From an uncultured Thermoleophilia bacterium (GTDB lineage: Bacteria; Actinomycetota; Thermoleophilia; UBA2241): DNA of 64,000 nt. Under the pieces are notes generated by a model, which saw only the letters and a program-made list of their open reading frames with translations, searched no databases and was not told the DNA's origin. This document shows positions 12,395 to 21,263 of the stretch, in pieces (position 1 is the stretch's first letter; every line of letters starts with the position of its first letter). Location: assembly GCA_963717965.1 (NCBI GenBank), contig CAVQXS010000003.1:134896-198895 (forward strand), in the 5' to 3' direction. A program made the translations under genes and the position numbers.

Positions 12395-12654
12395 AGAGCC
12401 CGGGCCGACTGCTTCGTCGGGCCCGGGCCTCCCGTCTTCGAGACCACCGCGTGCGTCGCCGCCGTCCCGTTCACCACGCGAGACGCGTCGACACACGAAC
12501 GGAGGCAGGTCTTCTGGCTCCCGGATCATCCTTCGGCCGCGCCTTCCCGCCAGCACGCTGGCAGTGGCTTCACGCGTCCGTCGTCCCCGGTCACAGCGGC
12601 GGGTCCGCGCCGGTCTTGCACCGGCTTCCCTCTGTGGCCCTCGCGGGCACCTCC
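12395..12654 (-). promoter_or_regulatory. Cobalamin (adenosylcobalamin) riboswitch with a terminator-like expression platform, upstream of cobU
   Basis: The minus strand reads GGAGGTGCC...AGGGAAGCCGGTGCAAGACCGGCGCGGACCCGCCGCTGTGACCGGGGACGA...GAAGCCACTG (B12 box)...GGGAAGGCG...GGGAGCCAGAAGACCTGCCTCC. A GC hairpin follows, CCCGGGCCCGAC/GTCGGCCCGGG plus CTCTTTG, at about 12395-12429. Confidence 0.85.
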
Positions 12655-12756
12655 AAGCGCCCGGATGCTAGACGACGCGCCTCCCGGCGGTCAAGCGGCG
12701 CGGCGCAGGACGCGGCGCAGGGCCTGGGCGTCATCACCCCGGGCAACGCCGATCGC

Positions 12757-12770
12757 TCGACTCTGGTCAA
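12757..12770. promoter_or_regulatory. Candidate FNR/CRP-type operator TCGAC-TCTG-GTCAA, 54 nt upstream of the DUF362 start
   Basis: One mismatch from TTGAC-N4-GTCAA. Same architecture as the perfect box at 18849. Confidence 0.3.
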
Positions 12771-12823
12771 ACCGTGGCCGAGGAGTACCATGGACGCGAG
12801 ACCGGAGCCCCAGGGGGTGGACC

Positions 12824-13792
12824 ATGGCACGCGAACCGCTCACCCGCGCCGAGTTCCTCAAGATCCTCGCCGCCGGCGCCGGCGGGATCGTCTTCCTGCG
12901 GGGCTCCGAGGATGCCCTCGCCGCCCTCGCGGGCGCGGACGACGAACTGGACGAGGCGGCCCTCAACGGCGACGCCAAGAGCGCCGCCCTTCCCTACATG
13001 ACCGTCGTCCACGGCACGCCGGTCGACGCGAACGTGAGGACGGCGATCGCCAAGCTCGGCGGCATGCGCCGCTTCGTCGGCGCCGGCGACGACGTGGTCA
13101 TCAAGCCCAACATCTGCGCGGCGCGAGCGCCGAAGTACGCGGCGACGACGAACCCGGTGGTGGTCGCCACGCTGGTCAGGCTGGCGCGCGGCGCCGGCGC
13201 CCGCCGCGTCCGCGTCATGGACAACCCCATCTCCTCGAGCCCGTCGACCTGCTACTCCGCCAGCGGGATCGGCTCCGCGGTCAAGGCGGCCGGCGGCTCG
13301 ATGCAGGTGATGAGCGCGTCCCGCTATGCGACCTACGACATCCCCGGGACGCTGCTGGACCGTCACCCGATCTACCGCGACATGATCGAGTGCGACGTGC
13401 TCATCAACGTGCCGATCGCCAAGGTCCACGGCTCGACCGGGCTCACGCTGGCCGGCAAGAACCTGATGGGCTGCACGAGCAACCGCGCGCGCATGCACAA
13501 CCTGGGCCTCAGCCGCAGCATCGCGGAGCTGAACGCCAAGCTGAAGCCGGAGCTCACGGTGCTCGACGCGATCCGGATCCTGGTGGCGCACGGCCCCACC
13601 GGTGGGAGCCTCGCCGACGTGCGCCGCAAGGACATCGTGATCGCCTGCAAGGACTGGGTCGCAGCCGACGCCTACGCGACGCGGCTGTTCGGCAAGACGC
13701 CGGCGTACGTGCCGTACATCGCGGCGGCGGCCAGGATGGGCCTGGGCAAGGCGAACCTCTCCGGCCTGACGATCAAGAAGTACGAGGTCTGA
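12824..13792 (+). CDS. DUF362 domain protein with a Tat-like signal peptide
   Basis: MAREPLTRAEFLKILAAGAGGIVFL (an RA variant of the RR-x-FLK motif)...VVIKPNICAA...VLINVPIAKVHGSTGLTLAGKNLMG...LDAIRILVAHGP. RBS GGGGGTGG. Confidence 0.8.
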   Translation: MAREPLTRAEFLKILAAGAGGIVFLRGSEDALAALAGADDELDEAALNGDAKSAALPYMTVVHGTPVDANVRTAIAKLGGMRRFVGAGDDVVIKPNICAARAPKYAATTNPVVVATLVRLARGAGARRVRVMDNPISSSPSTCYSASGIGSAVKAAGGSMQVMSASRYATYDIPGTLLDRHPIYRDMIECDVLINVPIAKVHGSTGLTLAGKNLMGCTSNRARMHNLGLSRSIAELNAKLKPELTVLDAIRILVAHGPTGGSLADVRRKDIVIACKDWVAADAYATRLFGKTPAYVPYIAAAARMGLGKANLSGLTIKKYEV

Positions 13793-13799
13793 GCCAGCC

Positions 13800-15473
13800 G
13801 TGACGGACGAGGAGCGGCCGGCGCACGCCGAAGCGGCACGAGAGGGCGCGGCGCCTGCCGCGGAGCGGGCGAGACCGGCGCGGCGCGGCACGAGCGGCTG
13901 GCAGGCCGCTCGATGGGTCCGGCGCGCCGTCCAGATCGTCACCTTCGTCACCTTCGTCTATCTGCTCTTCGCCGGGCTGCAGCGCCTCCGGCCGCTGCCG
14001 TACGCGAGCATCTTCTTCCGCTTCGACCCGCTCGTCGCGCTCACCACGATGCTCGCCGCCCGCGCCTGGCTCGCCCCGTTCGCGCTGGCGTTCGTCACGC
14101 TCGGGCTCACGCTCGTCCTCGGCCGCGTCTGGTGCGGCTGGATCTGCCCGCTCGGCACGCTGCTCGGCTGGCTGCGCTTCCGCTCGGCGCGGCGGCTCGC
14201 CGGGCGCATGCCCCCGGCCCTCCGCCGCGTCAAGTACGTGCTGCTCGGCGTCATCGTCGTGCTGGCCGCGCTCGCCAACCTCACGCTGCTCGTCCTGGAC
14301 CCGCTCTCGCTGCTGACGCGGACGATGACGACCTCGGCCATCCCCGGCTTCGTGTACCTGGTGGACTCGCTGGAGCGCGCGGGGATGACCTGGGGACCCA
14401 CGGTGGGCCTCGTCACCTGGGTCGAGGACCACTTCCGCGGCTCCGTGCTCCCCACGATCCAGCCGCGGTACGAGCAGGCGATCGCGCTCTTCCTCGTGCT
14501 CCTCGCCCTGATCCTGCTGAACGCGCTGGCGGACCGCTTCTGGTGCCGCTACCTGTGCCCGCTCGGGGCGCTGCTCGGCCTGGTCTCCAAGATCCAGGTG
14601 CTGCGCCCGGTCATGAGCGACGGCTGCGGCGCCTGCGGCGCCTGCGCCACCGCCTGCCGGGTCGAGGCGATCGAGGCCGGCGGCCGCGGAGACGTCGGCG
14701 GTGCGCCTGAGTCCCCGAGCGTCGTGAGCTCCGAGTGCACGATGTGCCTCGACTGCCTCGTCGCCTGCCCTCGAGAGGGCGGCATGACGCTCGGGGCGGC
14801 CCGGCCGGGCCCGTGGGCCGACTACGATCCCGGCCGGCGGGAGGCCGTGCTCGCGGTCGGCGCCGGTCTCGGAGCCGCCGTGCTCCTCGGCACCGGGGTC
14901 GCTCGCGCGGTCAAGCGCCCGGGCCTGATCCGGCCGCCGGGCGCCCAGGACGAGGGCCGCTTCCTCTCGAGGTGCCTGCGCTGCAGCGAGTGCATGAAGG
15001 TCTGCCCGACCTCCGGCCTCCAGCCGACGCTGGCGGAGGCCGGCCTCGAGGGCCTCTGGACGCCCGTCCTGCGGTCGCGGCTCGGCTACTGCGACTACGC
15101 CTGCAACGCTTGCGGCCAGGTCTGCCCCTCGGGAGCGATCCCTCCCCTCTCCCTCGCGAAGAAGCGCGCTCAGGTCATCGGCGTCGCCGTCATCGACAGG
15201 GACCGCTGCCTGCCGTGGGCGGCCGGCACGCCCTGCATCGTCTGCCAGGAGATGTGCCCCGTGCCGGACAAGGCGATCGAGCTTCGCGGCCAGCGGCTCA
15301 TCACGCGCGCCGACGGCAGCGAGGACTACCTCGCCCGGCCGGTGGTGATCGCGAGCCGCTGCATCGGCTGCGGCATCTGCGAGTACAAGTGCCCGCTCGA
15401 GGGCACCTCGGCGATCGTGGTCCTGCCGACGAACCCGGATCTCGCCGGAGGCGGCGCACCGCTCGCCGGCTGA
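13800..15473 (+). CDS. Membrane-anchored polyferredoxin (NapH/NosR-like transmembrane CxxxCP module plus multiple 4Fe-4S motifs)
   Basis: WCGWICPLGTLLGWL and WCRYLCPLGALLGLV in transmembrane segments. Then CGACGACATAC, CTMCLDCLVACP, CLRCSECMKVCP, CNACGQVCP, CIVCQEMCP and CIGCGICEYKCP. Confidence 0.8.
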   Translation: MTDEERPAHAEAAREGAAPAAERARPARRGTSGWQAARWVRRAVQIVTFVTFVYLLFAGLQRLRPLPYASIFFRFDPLVALTTMLAARAWLAPFALAFVTLGLTLVLGRVWCGWICPLGTLLGWLRFRSARRLAGRMPPALRRVKYVLLGVIVVLAALANLTLLVLDPLSLLTRTMTTSAIPGFVYLVDSLERAGMTWGPTVGLVTWVEDHFRGSVLPTIQPRYEQAIALFLVLLALILLNALADRFWCRYLCPLGALLGLVSKIQVLRPVMSDGCGACGACATACRVEAIEAGGRGDVGGAPESPSVVSSECTMCLDCLVACPREGGMTLGAARPGPWADYDPGRREAVLAVGAGLGAAVLLGTGVARAVKRPGLIRPPGAQDEGRFLSRCLRCSECMKVCPTSGLQPTLAEAGLEGLWTPVLRSRLGYCDYACNACGQVCPSGAIPPLSLAKKRAQVIGVAVIDRDRCLPWAAGTPCIVCQEMCPVPDKAIELRGQRLITRADGSEDYLARPVVIASRCIGCGICEYKCPLEGTSAIVVLPTNPDLAGGGAPLAG

Positions 15474-15500
15474 CGCGTCTACGCCCGATATACTCGAGAC

Positions 15501-16241
15501 ATGAGCCCCGACGACGGCCCCATGAGCACCGACGACCGCACGCTCGCCGATCTGCGCGCCGCCCCACTCTTCCGGCGCATGGACGGGGACCAGCTCCAGC
15601 GGCTCGCGACCCTGGCGAAGCCGCGGCGGCTGCCGGCGGAGGAGACCCTGTTCCTTCAAGGCGACCCGGCGACGGCGTTCTTCCTCCTCGCCGAGGGCCG
15701 CCTCAAGGTCTTCAAGCTCCTGCGTGACGGGCGGACGGCCACGGTGCGCCACGTCGAGGCCGGCCAGACGTTCGCCGAGGCGGCGCTGTTCCACGAGGCG
15801 TACCCCTCGAGCACGGAGACGCTGACGGAGTGTCTCGTCTACCGCTTCGACAAGGAGGCAACGCTCGCGCTGCTGCTGGCCGAGCCGCAGCTCTCCGTCA
15901 ACCTGCTGGCGGCCATGGCGCACCTCCTCGGGCTGCTCAACCGCCGCGTTGAGGAGCTCCTGCTGCCGGTGCCGGCGCGCCTCGCCAGGTACCTGCTGGC
16001 GCGCGCCGACGAGCAGCTCGAGCCGGCGGCCACGGGCGGCGCGGGTCCGGCCGACGGCCCGCGCGTCATCCGGCTCCCGGTGAGCAAGCGCGAGCTCGCG
16101 GCGCGTCTCGGGACCGTCCCAGAGACGCTCAGCCGCACCTTCGATCGCTTCAAGCGCGCCGAGGTGATCCGCATGAGCAGCGACCACCGGCTCATCGAGA
16201 TCCTCAGCTTCGTCAAGCTGCACCGGCTCGCCCAGGAGTAG
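15501..16241 (+). CDS. Crp/Fnr family transcriptional regulator with an FNR-type E--SR recognition helix
   Basis: cNMP-binding-like N-terminal domain (LFLQGDPATAFFLLAEGRLKVFK). HTH VSKRELAARLGTVPETLSRTFDRF, with ETLSR at 16122..16136. No N-terminal Cys cluster. Confidence 0.85.
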   Translation: MSPDDGPMSTDDRTLADLRAAPLFRRMDGDQLQRLATLAKPRRLPAEETLFLQGDPATAFFLLAEGRLKVFKLLRDGRTATVRHVEAGQTFAEAALFHEAYPSSTETLTECLVYRFDKEATLALLLAEPQLSVNLLAAMAHLLGLLNRRVEELLLPVPARLARYLLARADEQLEPAATGGAGPADGPRVIRLPVSKRELAARLGTVPETLSRTFDRFKRAEVIRMSSDHRLIEILSFVKLHRLAQE

Positions 16242-16331
16242 AGACTCGCCGACGGTGACACTGGCGCGGCGGGCGGGAATCATCACCGGTGTTCCCTGAC
16301 ATCCGACCTCACGAGAGGACGGTGGGCGATC

Positions 16332-16775
16332 ATGGCAATCACCCCCAGACTACGGACCATCGGGCGAGTGACCGGTGTGGCGGCGGCGACGGCCCCCAAG
16401 GTACGGCGGCTGGCCAAGGACGACGAACTGCGTGCCGAGGTGAGCGACCTCGTGCGCTCGGCCCGCGACCTCGTACGCGAGGTGACGACCGACGAGAGGG
16501 TCCGGAGTGACCTGCGCGGCATCGTCTCGTCGGCGCTCGACAGCGCCGGAAGGGTGCGGGAGGACGTGCGCCCGCGCCACCGGCTACGCCGGCTGTTCGC
16601 CCTCGGCGCCGGACTCGCGCTGGCGCTGTTCTCGATCGCCGCGGCCTTCGCCTACCCGCGCAGCCGCCAGGGCATCGTCCGCGTCGCCGGCGAGACCCGG
16701 CAGCGGGCGTCGGCGACGGTGCACGACGCGCGCGAGCGGTTCGGACGAGGCTCTTCCCTCGAGCAAGCCGCGTGA
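16332..16775 (+). CDS. Hypothetical protein with one C-terminal transmembrane helix
   Basis: 147-aa ORF with a helical charged N-terminus and LFALGAGLALALFSIAAAFAY. I recognise no family. Confidence 0.45.
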   Translation: MAITPRLRTIGRVTGVAAATAPKVRRLAKDDELRAEVSDLVRSARDLVREVTTDERVRSDLRGIVSSALDSAGRVREDVRPRHRLRRLFALGAGLALALFSIAAAFAYPRSRQGIVRVAGETRQRASATVHDARERFGRGSSLEQAA

Positions 16776-17002
16776 GCAGGGACGATGAGGGACGGGGTGA
16801 GCGCGCTCCGCGCGCCGAGATCCCCGTCCCTCACGACCTGCAGATCGAGCTGCACGACGACCCCGAGGCGGCGGCGGCGTTCGCGGGGCTGCCGCCGTCG
16901 CACCGCCGCGAGTACATCGACTGGATCCTCGAGGCCAAACGGCCCGAGACTCGCCTGCGCCGCGTCGAGGAGACGGCGGGGCGTGTCAAGCGCGGGCGCT
17001 AG
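16772..17002 (+). CDS. YdeI/OmpD-associated family protein
   Basis: VPHDLQIELHDDPEAAAAFAGLPPSHRREYIDWILEAKRPETRLRRVEE. 4-nt overlap with the upstream ORF. Confidence 0.65.
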   Translation: MSRDDEGRGERAPRAEIPVPHDLQIELHDDPEAAAAFAGLPPSHRREYIDWILEAKRPETRLRRVEETAGRVKRGR

Positions 17003-17028
17003 AAGCGCGACCGCCCAGGAGGCCGGCC

Positions 17029-17712
17029 TTGAGGTTCCTCGCCCTCGCCTGCGACTACGACGGGACCATCGCCCACGACGGGAAGGTCGCGGCGGCGACA
17101 CTGCGGGCGCTGCACGACGTGCGCGAGTCCGGCCGCAAGCTGATCCTGGTCACCGGACGGCAGCTCGACGACCTGCTCGAGGCGTTTCCCGGCGCCTTCG
17201 TCTTCGATCGCATCGTCGCGGAGAACGGCGGCGTGCTCTTTCGGCCGGAGACCCGCGAGCGGATCCTCCTGACAAGGCCAGTGGACCTCGGCCTCGTCGC
17301 TGCCCTCTGCTCACAGGGCGTCGAGCCGCTCTCGGTCGGCGAGGCGCTGATCGCGACCCTGGAGCCGCAGCGACAGCGAGTACTCGAGGCCATCCGGGAC
17401 CGGGGGCTCGAGCTGCAGCTGATCTGCAACAAGGGCGCCGTCATGGTGCTGCCGTCAGGCGTCGACAAGGCCTCCGGCCTGACGGCCGCGCTGATCGAGC
17501 TCGACCTGTCGCCGCGCAACGCGGCCGGCATCGGCGACGCAGAGAACGACCAGGCGTTCCTCCAGATCTGCGCCTGCGGAGCAGTTCTCGCGAACGCGCC
17601 GCCGGCGCTCCGGGAGCATGCCGACTACGTGACCAGCGGGGAGGACGGCGCCGGCGTCAGGGAGTTCATCGGCCGGTTGCTCGACGACGATCTCGCCGGC
17701 GTCGTGCCGTGA
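17029..17712 (+). CDS. HAD-IIB family hydrolase
   Basis: FLALACDYDGTIA (DxDGT motif)...LILVTGRQ...GIGDAENDQAFL. Confidence 0.8.
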   Translation: MRFLALACDYDGTIAHDGKVAAATLRALHDVRESGRKLILVTGRQLDDLLEAFPGAFVFDRIVAENGGVLFRPETRERILLTRPVDLGLVAALCSQGVEPLSVGEALIATLEPQRQRVLEAIRDRGLELQLICNKGAVMVLPSGVDKASGLTAALIELDLSPRNAAGIGDAENDQAFLQICACGAVLANAPPALREHADYVTSGEDGAGVREFIGRLLDDDLAGVVP

Positions 17713-17733
17713 GCGAGCGACGTTCGCCGCGCC

Positions 17734-18780
17734 TCACCGCCGCCAGAACAGCGCGCGCAGCGCGAGCAGCAGGATCGCGGCGATCGCGAGCATGAGTCCC
17801 AGCGCGCCCCAGAACACCCAGGGCTGCAGCATGTCCTTGGGCAGCATGTTCATGCCGAAGATCCCGGCGATGAGGCTCGCCGGCAGGAGGAGCACGGACA
17901 CGGTGGTGAGCACGCGCATGATCTCGTTGGTGTGCTGCGCCGTCTGCGTCATGAACACATCGAACGCGCCGACGATCATCTCCCGCGTCGTGTCCGCGGT
18001 CTGCACGGCCATCTCGAGCCGGTCGACGAGGACCTCGAAGTCCCGCGCGGCGGAGCTGCCCGAGATCACGTCGAAGCTCGGGTGTGACAGGCTCGCCAGC
18101 ACCTGCCGGTGAGGCGAGAGCTGCCGGCGCAGCTGGCCCACGTCGTGGCGCAGGCCGACGAGACGCTCGACCAGGCCCTCGCCGGTCCGCTCGCGCAGGA
18201 TGCTCACCTCGATCTCATCGATGGCCTGCTGGAGCTCGTCGAGCCGGTCGAAGTACGCGTTGATGACCCACTCGAGCACGTGCGCGAGGAAGCTCGGCGC
18301 GTCGAGCTTGCCGAGCGCCGAGTCTCCGCGCAGGTGGTCGGCGAAATCCCGGATGGAGCCGACGTCGCCCTCGTGCAGGGTCACCAGCCAGTTGCGGCCG
18401 ACGGCGCAGACCAGGGTCTCGGAGGCCGTCCCCGCGCGAGCGGCCGGCACCGGCAGCACGCCGAGCACGAACGCGTCGCCGTAGTCCCGGAGGTACGGCC
18501 GCGCGCCGGGCCGAGCCTCCAGGACCTCAGGCTCCAGGGGCAGGAGCCCGGCGACCAGCGCGATCGCGCCCTCCTCCGAGGAGTCGACGTCGATCCACAG
18601 CAGGTCTTCGTCCTCGAGGCCCTCGACCAGCGTCCTTTCGGGGGTCACCTCGCGGTCGTCGCCGTCGGCGTCGTAGAGGAAGGCGTTGACGCCGCCGCCT
18701 CCGACCTCCGGGGCGTCATGTTTCTCCGTACTCGTCGCGCCTGCCATCCCTGACCACCTCCCACGCTTCGGCTTCCCCAC
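17734..18780 (-). CDS. corA: CorA family magnesium/cobalt transporter
   Basis: C-terminal LTTVSVLLLPASLIAGIFGMNMLP (GMN motif) plus a final transmembrane helix. The start may be the internal ATG (MAGATS) near 18747. Confidence 0.85.
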   Translation of the reverse strand: MGKPKRGRWSGMAGATSTEKHDAPEVGGGGVNAFLYDADGDDREVTPERTLVEGLEDEDLLWIDVDSSEEGAIALVAGLLPLEPEVLEARPGARPYLRDYGDAFVLGVLPVPAARAGTASETLVCAVGRNWLVTLHEGDVGSIRDFADHLRGDSALGKLDAPSFLAHVLEWVINAYFDRLDELQQAIDEIEVSILRERTGEGLVERLVGLRHDVGQLRRQLSPHRQVLASLSHPSFDVISGSSAARDFEVLVDRLEMAVQTADTTREMIVGAFDVFMTQTAQHTNEIMRVLTTVSVLLLPASLIAGIFGMNMLPKDMLQPWVFWGALGLMLAIAAILLLALRALFWRR

Positions 18781-18848
18781 CTCGCGCCCGCGTAACCGTT
18801 CGCCGCTGCGGCGCCGGGCGCGGCCGCCGAGCGGCGGGCCGCCGGCCC

Positions 18849-18862
18849 TTGACGCACGTCAA
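18849..18862. promoter_or_regulatory. Perfect FNR-type palindrome TTGAC-GCAC-GTCAA in the corA / ferredoxin-cooS divergent promoter region
   Basis: TTGACGcaCGTCAA, with 6-nt half-sites that are exact reverse complements. A TGTAAT -10-like hexamer lies about 27 nt downstream (18889-18894), a spacing that would fit a class II activator site. Confidence 0.45.
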
Positions 18863-18935
18863 TGAGGCCGGCCGTTCATCGCTGGTAGTGTAATCACTGT
18901 CATCATCGTGAAAACCACGCGAAAGCGAGTACTGC

Positions 18936-19319
18936 ATGGCCCTGCGTAGCATCGTGAAGATCGACGAAGACCTCTGTACCGGGTGCGGCCTCTGCGTCAC
19001 CCCGTGCGCCGAAGGCGCGATCGAGATCATCGACGGCAAGGCCAAGGTCATGAAGGAGGAGTTGTGCGACGGCGCCGGCTTCTGCCTCGCCGTCTGCCCC
19101 GAAGGAGCCCTCACCGTGGAGAAGCGCGAAGCCCCCGACTTCGACGAAGACGCCGCCGCCGAGAAGATCGCGGAGAAGCTCGCCGCCCACGTGACCATCC
19201 AGCAGACCTGCATGAACTGCGGCCGCAGCGAGAACGAGGCCATCCTCTTCCCCGCCCGCACCAAGGGCGAGAGCGCCTGGGTGTGCGTCAAGTGCCTCCC
19301 GGCGCTCATCCACGGCTGA
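18936..19319 (+). CDS. 4Fe-4S ferredoxin-domain protein with a C-terminal CxxC...CxxC zinc-ribbon-like tail
   Basis: CTGCGLCVTPC and CDGAGFCLAVCP, then CMNCGRSENE...WVCVKC. Lies immediately upstream of cooS. Confidence 0.8.
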   Translation: MALRSIVKIDEDLCTGCGLCVTPCAEGAIEIIDGKAKVMKEELCDGAGFCLAVCPEGALTVEKREAPDFDEDAAAEKIAEKLAAHVTIQQTCMNCGRSENEAILFPARTKGESAWVCVKCLPALIHG

Positions 19320-19397
19320 GCCGCTCACCGCAGCCGACCACAAGCCCCTGACGGCGCCCCGGCGCCTGACGCTCCCCACCATCCCCAGGAGGGATCC

Positions 19398-21263
19398 ATG
19401 GCAGACAGTTATCACGAGTCCGTACACACCATGCTCAAGGAGTCCAGGGAGGCCGGCGAGAGCACCTCGTTCGACCGCATGGACGCCATGGGTACGCGCT
19501 GCAAGTTCTGTGAGCAGGGCATCCGCTGCTCGCTGTGTTCGCAGGGGCCCTGCCGGCTCACCGAGAAGGCCCCGCGCGGCGTCTGCGGCATCGACGCCGA
19601 CGGCATGGCGATGCGCAACTTCCTGCTCCAGAACACGATGGGCACCGCCACCTACACCTACCACGCAACCGAGGTCATGAAGACCCTGGCCCAGGCCAAG
19701 CCCGGCGGCACGTTCGAGATCAAGGACTGGAGCAAGCTCGAGACGCTCGCCGGCGTCGTCGACGAGGCCGTCGAGCCGCGCGACACGCTGCCGAAGCGCG
19801 TCGCCGACGCCATCCTTCGGGAGTTCAACCGGGACCACCAGAGCCCGTCGCCGTTCGTCGAGAAGCTGGCCCCGGCGAAGCGCGTCGCCAAGTGGAAGGA
19901 ACTCGGCATCATGCCGGGCGGCATCTTCCACGAGAGCATGTTCGCCACCTCGAGCTGCCTCACCAACGTCGACGGCAACTACGTGAGCCTCGCGCTCAAG
20001 GGCCTGCGCCTCGGCATCGCCACCGCCTACGGCGCCCAGATCCCGCTCGAGCTCGCCCAGGACGCGCTCTGGGGCACGCCGACGCCGCACCCGATCAAGG
20101 TCGACCTCGGCATCATCGACCCCGAGTACGTGAACATCGTCGTCAACGGCCACGAGCCGATGGTCGGCGCCGCCCTGATCGCCGCGGCCCACGAGGCTGC
20201 TGCCCAGGACCAGGCGAAGGCCGCCGGCGCCAAGGGCCTGCGCATCGTCGGCTCCATCGAGACCGGCCAGGAGCTCGTCCAGCGCTTCGAGGTCGACGAC
20301 GTCTTCGTCGGGCTCACCGGCAACTGGCTGACGGAGGAGCTCGCGGTCGCGACCGGCGGCGTCGACGTCTTCGCCGCCGACATGAACTGCACGGTGCCGA
20401 CCCTCGGTGCCACCTGCGCCGCCCACGGCACGCTCCTCGTGCCCGTCAGCGACCTCGTCGGCATCGACGGCGCCGAGACGCCGATCGTCTTCGACGCGGC
20501 CAACGCCGGCGCGCAGGCGCAGCAGCTCATCGGCCTCGCCGTCGCCAACTACCCCCAGCGCAAGGGACTCGGCCAGGAGACGCCGGACCTGCGCACCGGC
20601 GACGCCGTCGCCGGCTTCAGCACCGAGAGCATCCTCGGCGCCCTCGGTGGCAGCCTCGACCCGCTGCTCGACGTCATCAAGAACGGCACGCTCAAGGGCG
20701 TCTGCGGCCTCGTGAGCTGCACCACCCTGCGCGACTCCGACCAGGACAGCCACACCGTCGCCATCGCCAAGGAGCTCATCAAGAACGACGTGCTCGTACT
20801 GGCCATGGGCTGCGGCAACGCCGGCCTCCAGGTCGCCGGCCTCGAGACGGCCGAGGCGAAGAAGTACGCCGGCCCCGGCCTCACCGCCGTCTGCGAGCTG
20901 CTCGGCATCCCGCCGGTGCTCAGCTTCGGCACCTGCACCGACACCGGCCGCATCCTGCTGCTGGTGGGCGCCATCGCCGACGCCCTCGGCGTGGACACCT
21001 CGGACCTGCCCGTGGTCGCCACGGCCCCCGAGTACATGGAGCAGAAGGCCACCATCGACGCTATGGCCGCGCTGGCCTTCGGCCTCTACACGCACGTGAA
21101 CCCGGTGCCGTTCGTGACCGGCGCGCCGAACCTGGTCAAGCTCGTCACCCAGGACCTCCCGGGCGTCACCGGCGGCAAGCTCGCCGTCGAGACCGACGCC
21201 AAGGAAGCGGTCGCCGCCATGCTGGCGTGGATAGACGCAAAGCGGGCTGGCCTGGGCATCTGA
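19398..21263 (+). CDS. cooS: Anaerobic Ni-dependent carbon-monoxide dehydrogenase catalytic subunit
   Basis: 621 aa. N-terminal cluster motifs RCKFCEQGIRCSLCSQGPCRL and GVCGIDADGMAMRNFLL, then ...NGHEP...CTDTGRI; collinear with CooS throughout. RBS AGGAGGG. Confidence 0.92.
   Translation: MADSYHESVHTMLKESREAGESTSFDRMDAMGTRCKFCEQGIRCSLCSQGPCRLTEKAPRGVCGIDADGMAMRNFLLQNTMGTATYTYHATEVMKTLAQAKPGGTFEIKDWSKLETLAGVVDEAVEPRDTLPKRVADAILREFNRDHQSPSPFVEKLAPAKRVAKWKELGIMPGGIFHESMFATSSCLTNVDGNYVSLALKGLRLGIATAYGAQIPLELAQDALWGTPTPHPIKVDLGIIDPEYVNIVVNGHEPMVGAALIAAAHEAAAQDQAKAAGAKGLRIVGSIETGQELVQRFEVDDVFVGLTGNWLTEELAVATGGVDVFAADMNCTVPTLGATCAAHGTLLVPVSDLVGIDGAETPIVFDAANAGAQAQQLIGLAVANYPQRKGLGQETPDLRTGDAVAGFSTESILGALGGSLDPLLDVIKNGTLKGVCGLVSCTTLRDSDQDSHTVAIAKELIKNDVLVLAMGCGNAGLQVAGLETAEAKKYAGPGLTAVCELLGIPPVLSFGTCTDTGRILLLVGAIADALGVDTSDLPVVATAPEYMEQKATIDAMAALAFGLYTHVNPVPFVTGAPNLVKLVTQDLPGVTGGKLAVETDAKEAVAAMLAWIDAKRAGLGI

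Follow-up and report, generated by a model that had tools for sequence, protein, structure and literature searches.

A conserved putative FNR-type operator precedes a ferredoxin-CooS-V operon in uncultured Thermoleophilia

We analysed a 64,000-nucleotide stretch of DNA from an uncultured Thermoleophilia bacterium (Actinomycetota; GenBank assembly GCA_963717965.1, contig CAVQXS010000003.1, positions 134,896 to 198,895 of the forward strand; hereafter the window), in which the gene for a Crp/Fnr-family regulator lies 2.7 kb upstream of a two-gene operon encoding a small ferredoxin and a Prismane-family enzyme annotated as cooS. A perfect palindrome of the form TTGAC-N4-GTCAA precedes this operon and is conserved, both in its letters and in its position, across related genomes. 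We propose that the palindrome is the operator for this regulator, whose dimer would contact it through a Pro-Glu-x-x-Ser-Arg recognition helix. The site is predicted to have its centre about 42 bp before the start of transcription, in place of a -35 element, where the dimer would recruit RNA polymerase (class II activation) to transcribe the ferredoxin and a CooS-V-type enzyme; the likeliest signal would be nitric oxide (NO) or some other cue from nitrogen oxides or nitrosative stress, perhaps detected through bound haem. We consider this mechanism, taken as a whole from regulator to signal, reasonably probable.

An initial annotation of the window had noted the palindrome, together with a one-mismatch copy upstream of a DUF362/polyferredoxin operon, and had suggested that one regulator co-controls CO oxidation and the polyferredoxin system and also regulates itself. 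Both boxes are present where it placed them (Table 1), and gene order and Pfam matches confirm that the DUF362 operon ends with a Crp/Fnr-family regulator. What stands of that proposal is a real putative operator and the right kind of regulator; a two-box regulon with autoregulation, and the control of CO oxidation, did not hold up.

Conservation of the box upstream of ferredoxin-cooS

The comparison set comprised 38 orthologous loci from uncultured Thermoleophilia and related Actinomycetota metagenome-assembled genomes (MAGs), one genome per species, with regulators 59-88% identical to that of the window. One further locus, L081, in which the regulator is 96% identical and the gene order is the same as in the window, was fetched apart from this set. 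Rarity of the motif was measured over the 619 kb of the 38 loci by searching for TTGAC-N4-GTCAA with at most one mismatch, and a symmetric 14-bp position weight matrix (PWM) was run over 683 kb, made up of these loci and the 64-kb window.

The pattern occurs 22 times in the 619 kb, and 20 of these occurrences lie 72-115 nt 5' of the ferredoxin start codon, with one more at a contig end (L004), where the ferredoxin gene would come next. The box is kept in all 20 loci whose genome contigs hold the ferredoxin upstream region, as well as in L004 and, identical to that of the window, in L081. In 20 of 21 promoters none of its ten half-site positions varies, and the remaining promoter has a single G-to-A change. 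Scores from the PWM separate these sites cleanly, as the 22 cooS-promoter sites (the window's included) all reach at least 21.5 bits and anything else reaches at most 12.9.

The sole ferredoxin copy lacking the box is a chimeric second copy in L015. There, positions 13889-18361 hold tandem ferredoxin-cooS copies, the first cooS stopping at residue 542 and running into the 5' untranslated region (UTR) of the second copy, an arrangement that suggests misassembly of a repeat.

The ferredoxin-cooS promoter

A TANNNT hexamer follows the box at 22-24 nt in 21 of 21 promoters (at 23 nt in 17 of them), while the sequence of the spacer between them diverges. The -10-like TGTAAT reported in the initial annotation is indeed present (18889-18894) but is not conserved; it is the overlapping TAGTGT that fits the conserved TANNNT. 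A sigma-70-type -35/-10 promoter was searched for in the ferredoxin-cooS promoter region and none was found. Placing the TANNNT -10 at -12 to -7 puts the centre of the box at about -42, as in class II promoters activated by FNR or CRP, and the predicted layout of the cooS box is thus that of a class II activator site. We also considered whether the halves of the box serve as -35 hexamers and rejected this, as the 31-nt spacing to the -10 at cooS exceeds what a -35 allows and on the minus strand no -10 follows.

Downstream of the -10, the ferredoxin 5'UTR of the window (18893-18935) reads CACTGTCA(C/T)CATCGTGAAAACCACGCGAAAGCGAG(C/T)A(G/C)TGCATG and hardly varies across about 14 orthologous loci, the promoter spacer just 5' of it being divergent. 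In a second clade (L025-L035) the ferredoxin UTR is a different one, about 110 nt long. The ferredoxin 5'UTR showed no significant fold as RNA (z = +1.06) and matched nothing in Rfam, and the conserved segment may act as a further operator or as a signal for translation.

The regulator and its recognition helix

FNR-class DNA recognition pairs an E--SR helix with a TTGA(T/C)-N4-(A/G)TCAA target. Both partners are found here, E208, S211 and R212 being invariant in 37 orthologues and the TTGAC-N4-GTCAA box standing in 22 loci. Within the helix RLGTVPETLSRTF, the residues RLGTVPETLSR are invariant in all 37 and are followed by TF in 36, so that invariance of the recognition helix matches invariance of the half-sites. 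The initial annotation had linked an FNR-class helix to the box before ferredoxin-cooS, and with an invariant helix and a conserved box this link is supported.

The genes are also linked in their order. In 22 loci (the window and L081 counted), over a span of 59-96% regulator identity, the regulator gene is followed at a distance of 0.13-8 kb by the ferredoxin/Prismane pair, which is directly adjacent to it in L013 and L028. We infer that the syntenic regulator binds the cooS box and activates the operon. Were the box real and bound instead by another FNR-class protein, such as an O2-sensing FNR or a FixK-like protein, the syntenic regulator would have its targets elsewhere. This would agree with the closeness of TTGAC-N4-GTCAA to the generic FNR/Anr/FixK consensus, a palindrome that also figures in a paper on a Pseudomonas aeruginosa katA promoter (PMC4974557), and with the occurrence of FtrB-like relatives with a PE-x-L-SR helix among such boxes, and our check for paralogues covered the 64-kb window only. 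We nevertheless judge it improbable, given the linkage just described, the joint invariance of helix and half-sites, and the finding of no other Crp/Fnr gene within the 64-kb window.

An AlphaFold model of the putative activator (mean predicted local distance difference test score, pLDDT, 87.8) matches the general fold of the family. Among its PDB relatives a functionally uncharacterised Ruegeria pomeroyi protein (3FX3/3H3Z) comes first, with DNR (3DKW) in third place at E = 6.9e-15, and its NCBIfam matches, to FtrB, LdrP and FixK, are all below threshold. The 120 regulator homologues listed are all close orthologues.

Three well-known kinds of Crp/Fnr-family sensor were considered and rejected. 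An O2-sensing FNR ligates its [4Fe-4S] cluster with three N-terminal Cys and one central Cys, whereas this regulator lacks an N-terminal Cys cluster and has a single Cys, C111, kept in 25 of 37 orthologues; the initial annotation was right to exclude an O2-sensing FNR. A cAMP-binding CRP holds the cAMP phosphate with an Arg/Ser pair (R82/S83 in E. coli, within the RTSS motif in Mycobacterium tuberculosis CRP). In an alignment to the M. tuberculosis protein (3D0S) the phosphate-binding Arg position is occupied by Y101, and Y101-P102 is nearly invariant, even in distant relatives. Neither the top 60 PDB sequence hits (phmmer) nor the top 50 fold hits (Foldseek) include CooA, residues 1-12 of the regulator are unconserved and of low pLDDT, which bears against an N-terminal CooA haem ligand, and the target is of CooS-V type. 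The earlier view that the regulator is not CooA-like is upheld by these searches.

Alphaproteobacterial relatives (L039-L080) resemble FtrB and FixK, and neither CooS nor ferredoxin genes adjoin them. Those of L044-L080 are 26-35% identical to the regulator, have the helix RLGLKPESLSRAF, resembling PDB 3FX3 and FtrB, and sit among several TTGA(C/T)-N4-(G/A)TCAA boxes, which fits the same helix-to-box code.

The target enzyme is of CooS-V type

The ferredoxin of the operon is 83-94% identical in the orthologous loci and always lies directly 5' of the Prismane-family gene. The enzyme encoded by that second gene passes the NCBIfam cooS model, and its best PDB match is CooS-V of Carboxydothermus hydrogenoformans (7B7Q), at 692.8 bits versus 382.9 for the next, which is the best canonical carbon monoxide dehydrogenase (CODH). 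At position 295 the alignment reads GSIETGQE here, GSIESGQE in CooS-V and GMCCTGNE in the canonical CODH (6T7J), and because GSIETG stands opposite GMCCTG, Glu replaces Cys295. At position 41 it reads RCKFCEQG here, RCNYCELG in CooS-V and QCAFGQLG in the canonical enzyme. Both CooS-V synapomorphies (Cys295 to Glu and Gly41 to Cys) are therefore present, and GSIETG is found in 21 of the 21 orthologous copies that cover the site.

By these sequence characters the target enzyme is assigned to the CooS-V subclade, the nickel-free type. A CO-oxidising Ni,Fe-CODH was rejected as its identity, since such an enzyme needs six C-cluster ligands, Cys295 among them, and the enzyme of the window has Glu there instead. 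The enzyme is probably not a CO-oxidising CODH, and with its CooS-V synapomorphies (Glu295 and Cys41) the suggestion in the initial annotation that CO oxidation is being controlled is probably wrong. The characterised CooS-V of C. hydrogenoformans shows no CO oxidation and contains an Fe/S/O hybrid cluster (PMC9311411). The protein described here resembles it over a full-length alignment, including Glu295 and the extra Cys41, and in having no CooC, CooF, ACS or hydrogenase genes nearby, and differs in that its gene stands behind a dedicated ferredoxin and a conserved putative activator site. The arrangement recalls CooA, also a Crp/Fnr-family activator near a gene annotated cooS, but the box is FNR-type and CO oxidation is not expected of the target enzyme.

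In soil Actinomycetota MAGs, genes annotated as cooS get counted as anaerobic CO-oxidation potential. In the window and 21 related loci, the genes so named bear the CooS-V substitutions.

Comparison with HcpR, DNR and DnrT

HcpR is a CRP/FNR-family regulator of hcp and of the ferredoxin-like frdX (PMC1274295, Rodionov et al. 2005). Upstream of hcp and frdX, its HcpR1 branch (Geobacter, Desulfuromonas, Desulfotalea and two cyanobacteria) has wyTTGACnnnnGTCAArw, a motif whose occurrence correlates with a Ser or Pro residue at CRP position 180 and a Glu at position 181 (PMC1274295). P207 and E208 of the regulator correspond to these two positions as Pro and Glu, the code that the published rule ties to TTGACnnnnGTCAA (PMC1274295), so that residues and motif agree here as they do in HcpR1. 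The likeness extends to the core palindrome TTGACnnnnGTCAA itself, to a target made up of a ferredoxin and a Prismane-family hybrid-cluster enzyme, and to a regulator gene nearby; the ferredoxin occupies the place that FrdX has in frdX-hcp operons, a likeness by position. There are also differences from HcpR1: the target is CooS-V type, on a CODH scaffold, and not Hcp; the host is an uncultured member of the Thermoleophilia (Actinomycetota); the flanks of the box are CC...TG, off the wy...rw consensus; and the regulator gene ends a DUF362-polyferredoxin operon.

The closest of the relatives compared is DnrT of Thermus thermophilus, found by tblastn of plasmids beside dnrS and narCG. It is 39% identical to the regulator over 218 residues (E = 2e-30) and has the same LGTVPExxSR helix, which places the regulator with the DNR/DnrT subgroup. 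DnrT is a DNR-subgroup member and activates by recruiting RNA polymerase, and the Thermus nrc, norC and nirJ promoters carry CTTGACCNNGGTCATGG, overlapping the DnrT footprint (PMC5748679). The FNR Cys cluster is absent from both proteins. DnrT differs in having the GAF-BTAD protein DnrS as its partner and in controlling the respiratory genes nar, nrc, nir and nor; beside the regulator in the window we saw no DnrS-like gene and no denitrification genes. Since DnrT is the nearest relative compared, we file the regulator as a putative DNR/DnrT-like family member that would work like HcpR/DNR-type regulators.

The haem-based NO sensors of this group are Porphyromonas gingivalis HcpR and Pseudomonas aeruginosa DNR (PMC12750200). 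Both share the fold of the regulator and, like it, lack the cAMP-binding Arg, and both activate nitrogen-oxide-handling genes; identity to DNR (3DKW) and P. gingivalis HcpR (9DAY) is just 21-27%, and the P. gingivalis HcpR motif differs. A precedent comes from Clostridioides difficile, where frdX-hcp is induced about 200-fold by NO via HcpR (PMC12915319).

To our knowledge, no cellular role has been given to the CooS-V family since its structure appeared in 2022. Our literature search found no paper tying CooS-V to an HcpR/DNR-class regulon. A conserved HcpR/DNR-class site together with a dedicated ferredoxin leads to the hypothesis that nitrite, NO or hydroxylamine induces the operon and that the ferredoxin donates the electrons. 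More tentatively, in Thermoleophilia a CooS-V-type enzyme and its dedicated 127-residue ferredoxin might replace Hcp-FrdX as the output of a nitrogen-oxide-responsive HcpR/DNR-type regulator, an idea to which we give somewhat less than even chances. If true, it would offer a first lead on the physiology of the CooS-V family, and many soil 'cooS' genes would not be markers of CO metabolism.

The nature of the signal

We favour NO or nitrosative stress as the effector, perhaps sensed via haem, by analogy, because the relatives of the regulator and the chemistry of the target enzyme point to a nitrogen-oxide signal rather than to CO. DNR, DnrT and HcpR all belong to nitrogen-oxide metabolism, and the target resembles Hcp in its cluster chemistry. 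The sensor domain is well conserved (H84 in 36, M139 in 37 and H229 in 36 of 37 orthologues, together with Y101-P102), which suggests a ligand or cofactor pocket; H84, M139 and H229 are candidate ligands as conserved residues only.

Several observations weigh against the proposed mechanism. The characterised CooS-V reduces hydroxylamine slowly, and its NO reduction was undetected in vitro (PMC9311411). DnrT is oxygen-insensitive and has no known ligand (PMC5748679). P. gingivalis HcpR (9DAY) is a distant relative (phmmer E = 5.5e-5, Foldseek rank 34), and its haem ligands Met68 and His149 could not be mapped onto the regulator. The likeness to HcpR1 draws on the published helix/motif rule and not on HcpR1 sequences. 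Some regulator loci (for example L003, L010, L012 and L024) have no ferredoxin-cooS within 10 kb. On the side of the mechanism, relatives of the ferredoxin and cooS genes occur in contigs of four metatranscriptomes (soil, mangrove), though none of the contigs over these genes gave usable 5' ends.

Some of these points would also agree with a reading in which regulator and box act as proposed and the signal is a different one. The regulator might be ligand-free and driven by its abundance, as in FixK and DnrT, or might respond to redox state, O2, CO or some other small molecule. For the abundance version, its level would be set by the DUF362-polyferredoxin promoter, and it is co-transcribed with a membrane redox module; the closest compared relative being DnrT, and the HcpR haem ligands and CooS-V NO reduction being as just described, also agree with a signal of another kind. 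Set against the conserved sensor domain, the shared nitrogen-oxide setting of DNR, DnrT and HcpR, and the Hcp-like cluster chemistry of the target, we think a signal other than NO or nitrosative stress unlikely, if far from negligible.

The box upstream of the DUF362 operon

The second box, the one-mismatch look-alike, behaves differently from the cooS box. Comparison of both boxes in orthologous loci, a check suggested in the initial annotation, gave a split outcome, the cooS box being kept in 22 loci and the DUF362 box being lost in 10 of the 10 orthologous DUF362 promoters examined, the closest relative L081 included. At the aligned position the window has TCGACTCTGGTCAA, L081 has TCGGC-CTGGCGAA, L004 has TCAATCTGGTCGTA, L008 has TCACCCTGGCCAAC and L015 has TCACACTGGCCATT, and in deeper relatives the sequence there is unrelated. 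The block CGAGGAGTACCATGG (12778-12793) just downstream is identical in the window, L081, L004, L015 and L008 and near-identical in farther orthologues. Its conservation exceeds what a -10 alone needs, and it has GGAGTACC in common with many relatives' cooS promoters.

The position of the DUF362 box also differs. An nGnCAA element is kept 16-17 nt before the DUF362 -10 and constitutes a weak -35; the GGTCAA half of the box overlaps this conserved -35-like hexamer. The centre of the box is 22.5 nt from the -10, compared with 30.5 nt at cooS, that is, 8 bp closer, so that it would lie on another face of the helix and the activating geometry would differ even if it were bound. A class II -10 for this box was looked for and rejected, as the required distance (about 12793-12799) reads GACGCG/ACGCGA, not TANNNT. 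The PWM score is 6.7, which ranks about 52nd in the 683 kb.

With at most one mismatch allowed, the 64-kb window holds just two box matches against an expected 0.36, and two or more were found in 6 of 100 shuffles, so the pair of boxes by itself is only weakly significant. Although a one-mismatch second box is a priori unlikely in a genome of 71% G+C, it still fails the conservation test. From sequence comparison, the DUF362 box is most likely a chance resemblance, aided by the -35-like hexamer, and not part of the circuit; less probably, it is a strain-specific repressing site.

The excess of matches over expectation, the location of both in promoter regions, and the regulator gene terminating the DUF362 operon are what speaks for the model of a single regulator bound to both boxes, which jointly controls a CO-oxidising CODH and the DUF362/polyferredoxin operon as well as its own expression. 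Opposed to this model are the loss of the DUF362 box from every orthologous promoter examined while CGAGGAGTACCATGG persists, its out-of-phase position over a -35-like hexamer and its low PWM score, and the CooS-V type of the enzyme, with Glu for Cys295; we regard it as very improbable. Because the DUF362 box is unconserved and out of phase with its promoter, both the shared-box regulon and autoregulation through that box are left without support. The coupling that remains is probably one-directional, with the regulator transcribed as part of the polyferredoxin operon and activating the ferredoxin-CooS-V operon.

Genes and other features of the region

The features discussed are collected in Table 1. 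Between the regulator gene and the ferredoxin gene lie, in order, genes for a small protein without a family match, a HAD hydrolase and a divergently oriented CorA.

Table 1. Position of the genes, boxes and promoter elements in the 64-kb window.
Feature	Position	Strand	Remarks
TCGACTCTGGTCAA, one-mismatch look-alike	12757..12770	.	last base 54 nt before the DUF362 ATG (12824); judged not conserved
TACCAT, inferred -10 of the DUF362 operon	12786..12791	+	within conserved block CGAGGAGTACCATGG
DUF362 protein	12824..13792	+	Pfam PF04015, E = 3e-45; Tat-like N-terminus; opens the operon whose last gene is the regulator
Membrane polyferredoxin	13800..15473	+	Pfam Fer4_5/Fer4_7; immediately upstream of the regulator gene
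Crp/Fnr-family regulator, 246 aa	15501..16241	+	Pfam cNMP_binding and HTH_Crp_2; last gene of the DUF362-polyferredoxin operon
Recognition residues P207-E208-T-L-S211-R212	16119..16136	+	codons read; ETLSR = 16122-16136
TTGACGCACGTCAA, conserved box	18849..18862	.	last base 74 nt before the ferredoxin ATG (18936); centre about -42 from the inferred start
TAGTGT, inferred -10 (TANNNT) of the ferredoxin-cooS-V promoter	18886..18891	+	conserved spacing to the box
127-aa 2x[4Fe-4S]-type ferredoxin	18936..19319	+	Pfam Fer4 families; extra C-terminal Cys motif; first gene of the operon
CooS-V-type Prismane-family enzyme	19398..21263	+	7B7Q is the top PDB match; second gene, after the ferredoxin

The polyferredoxin gene adjoins the regulator gene, which directly follows it, in about 30 of the 38 loci. 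Residues about 23-325 of the polyferredoxin form a NapH-like membrane part and residues about 350-556 a NapG/MauM-like part with four clusters, while all of its NCBIfam matches, NapG and NapH included, are under the cut-offs. The polyferredoxin and the Tat-like DUF362 protein together look like a quinol-linked extracytoplasmic redox module.

The small protein, of 147 residues (16332-16775), has no Pfam or NCBIfam match and has a hydrophobic C-terminal segment. At least 11 related loci have its gene after that of the regulator, for which the protein could be a partner.

On the minus strand, a cobalamin riboswitch (Rfam RF00174, 110 bits, 12487-12669) lies ahead of a cobU-cobT operon. It has a promoter of its own, TTGACC-18-TAGCAT (12665-12694, minus strand), and shares its intergenic region with the DUF362 promoter.

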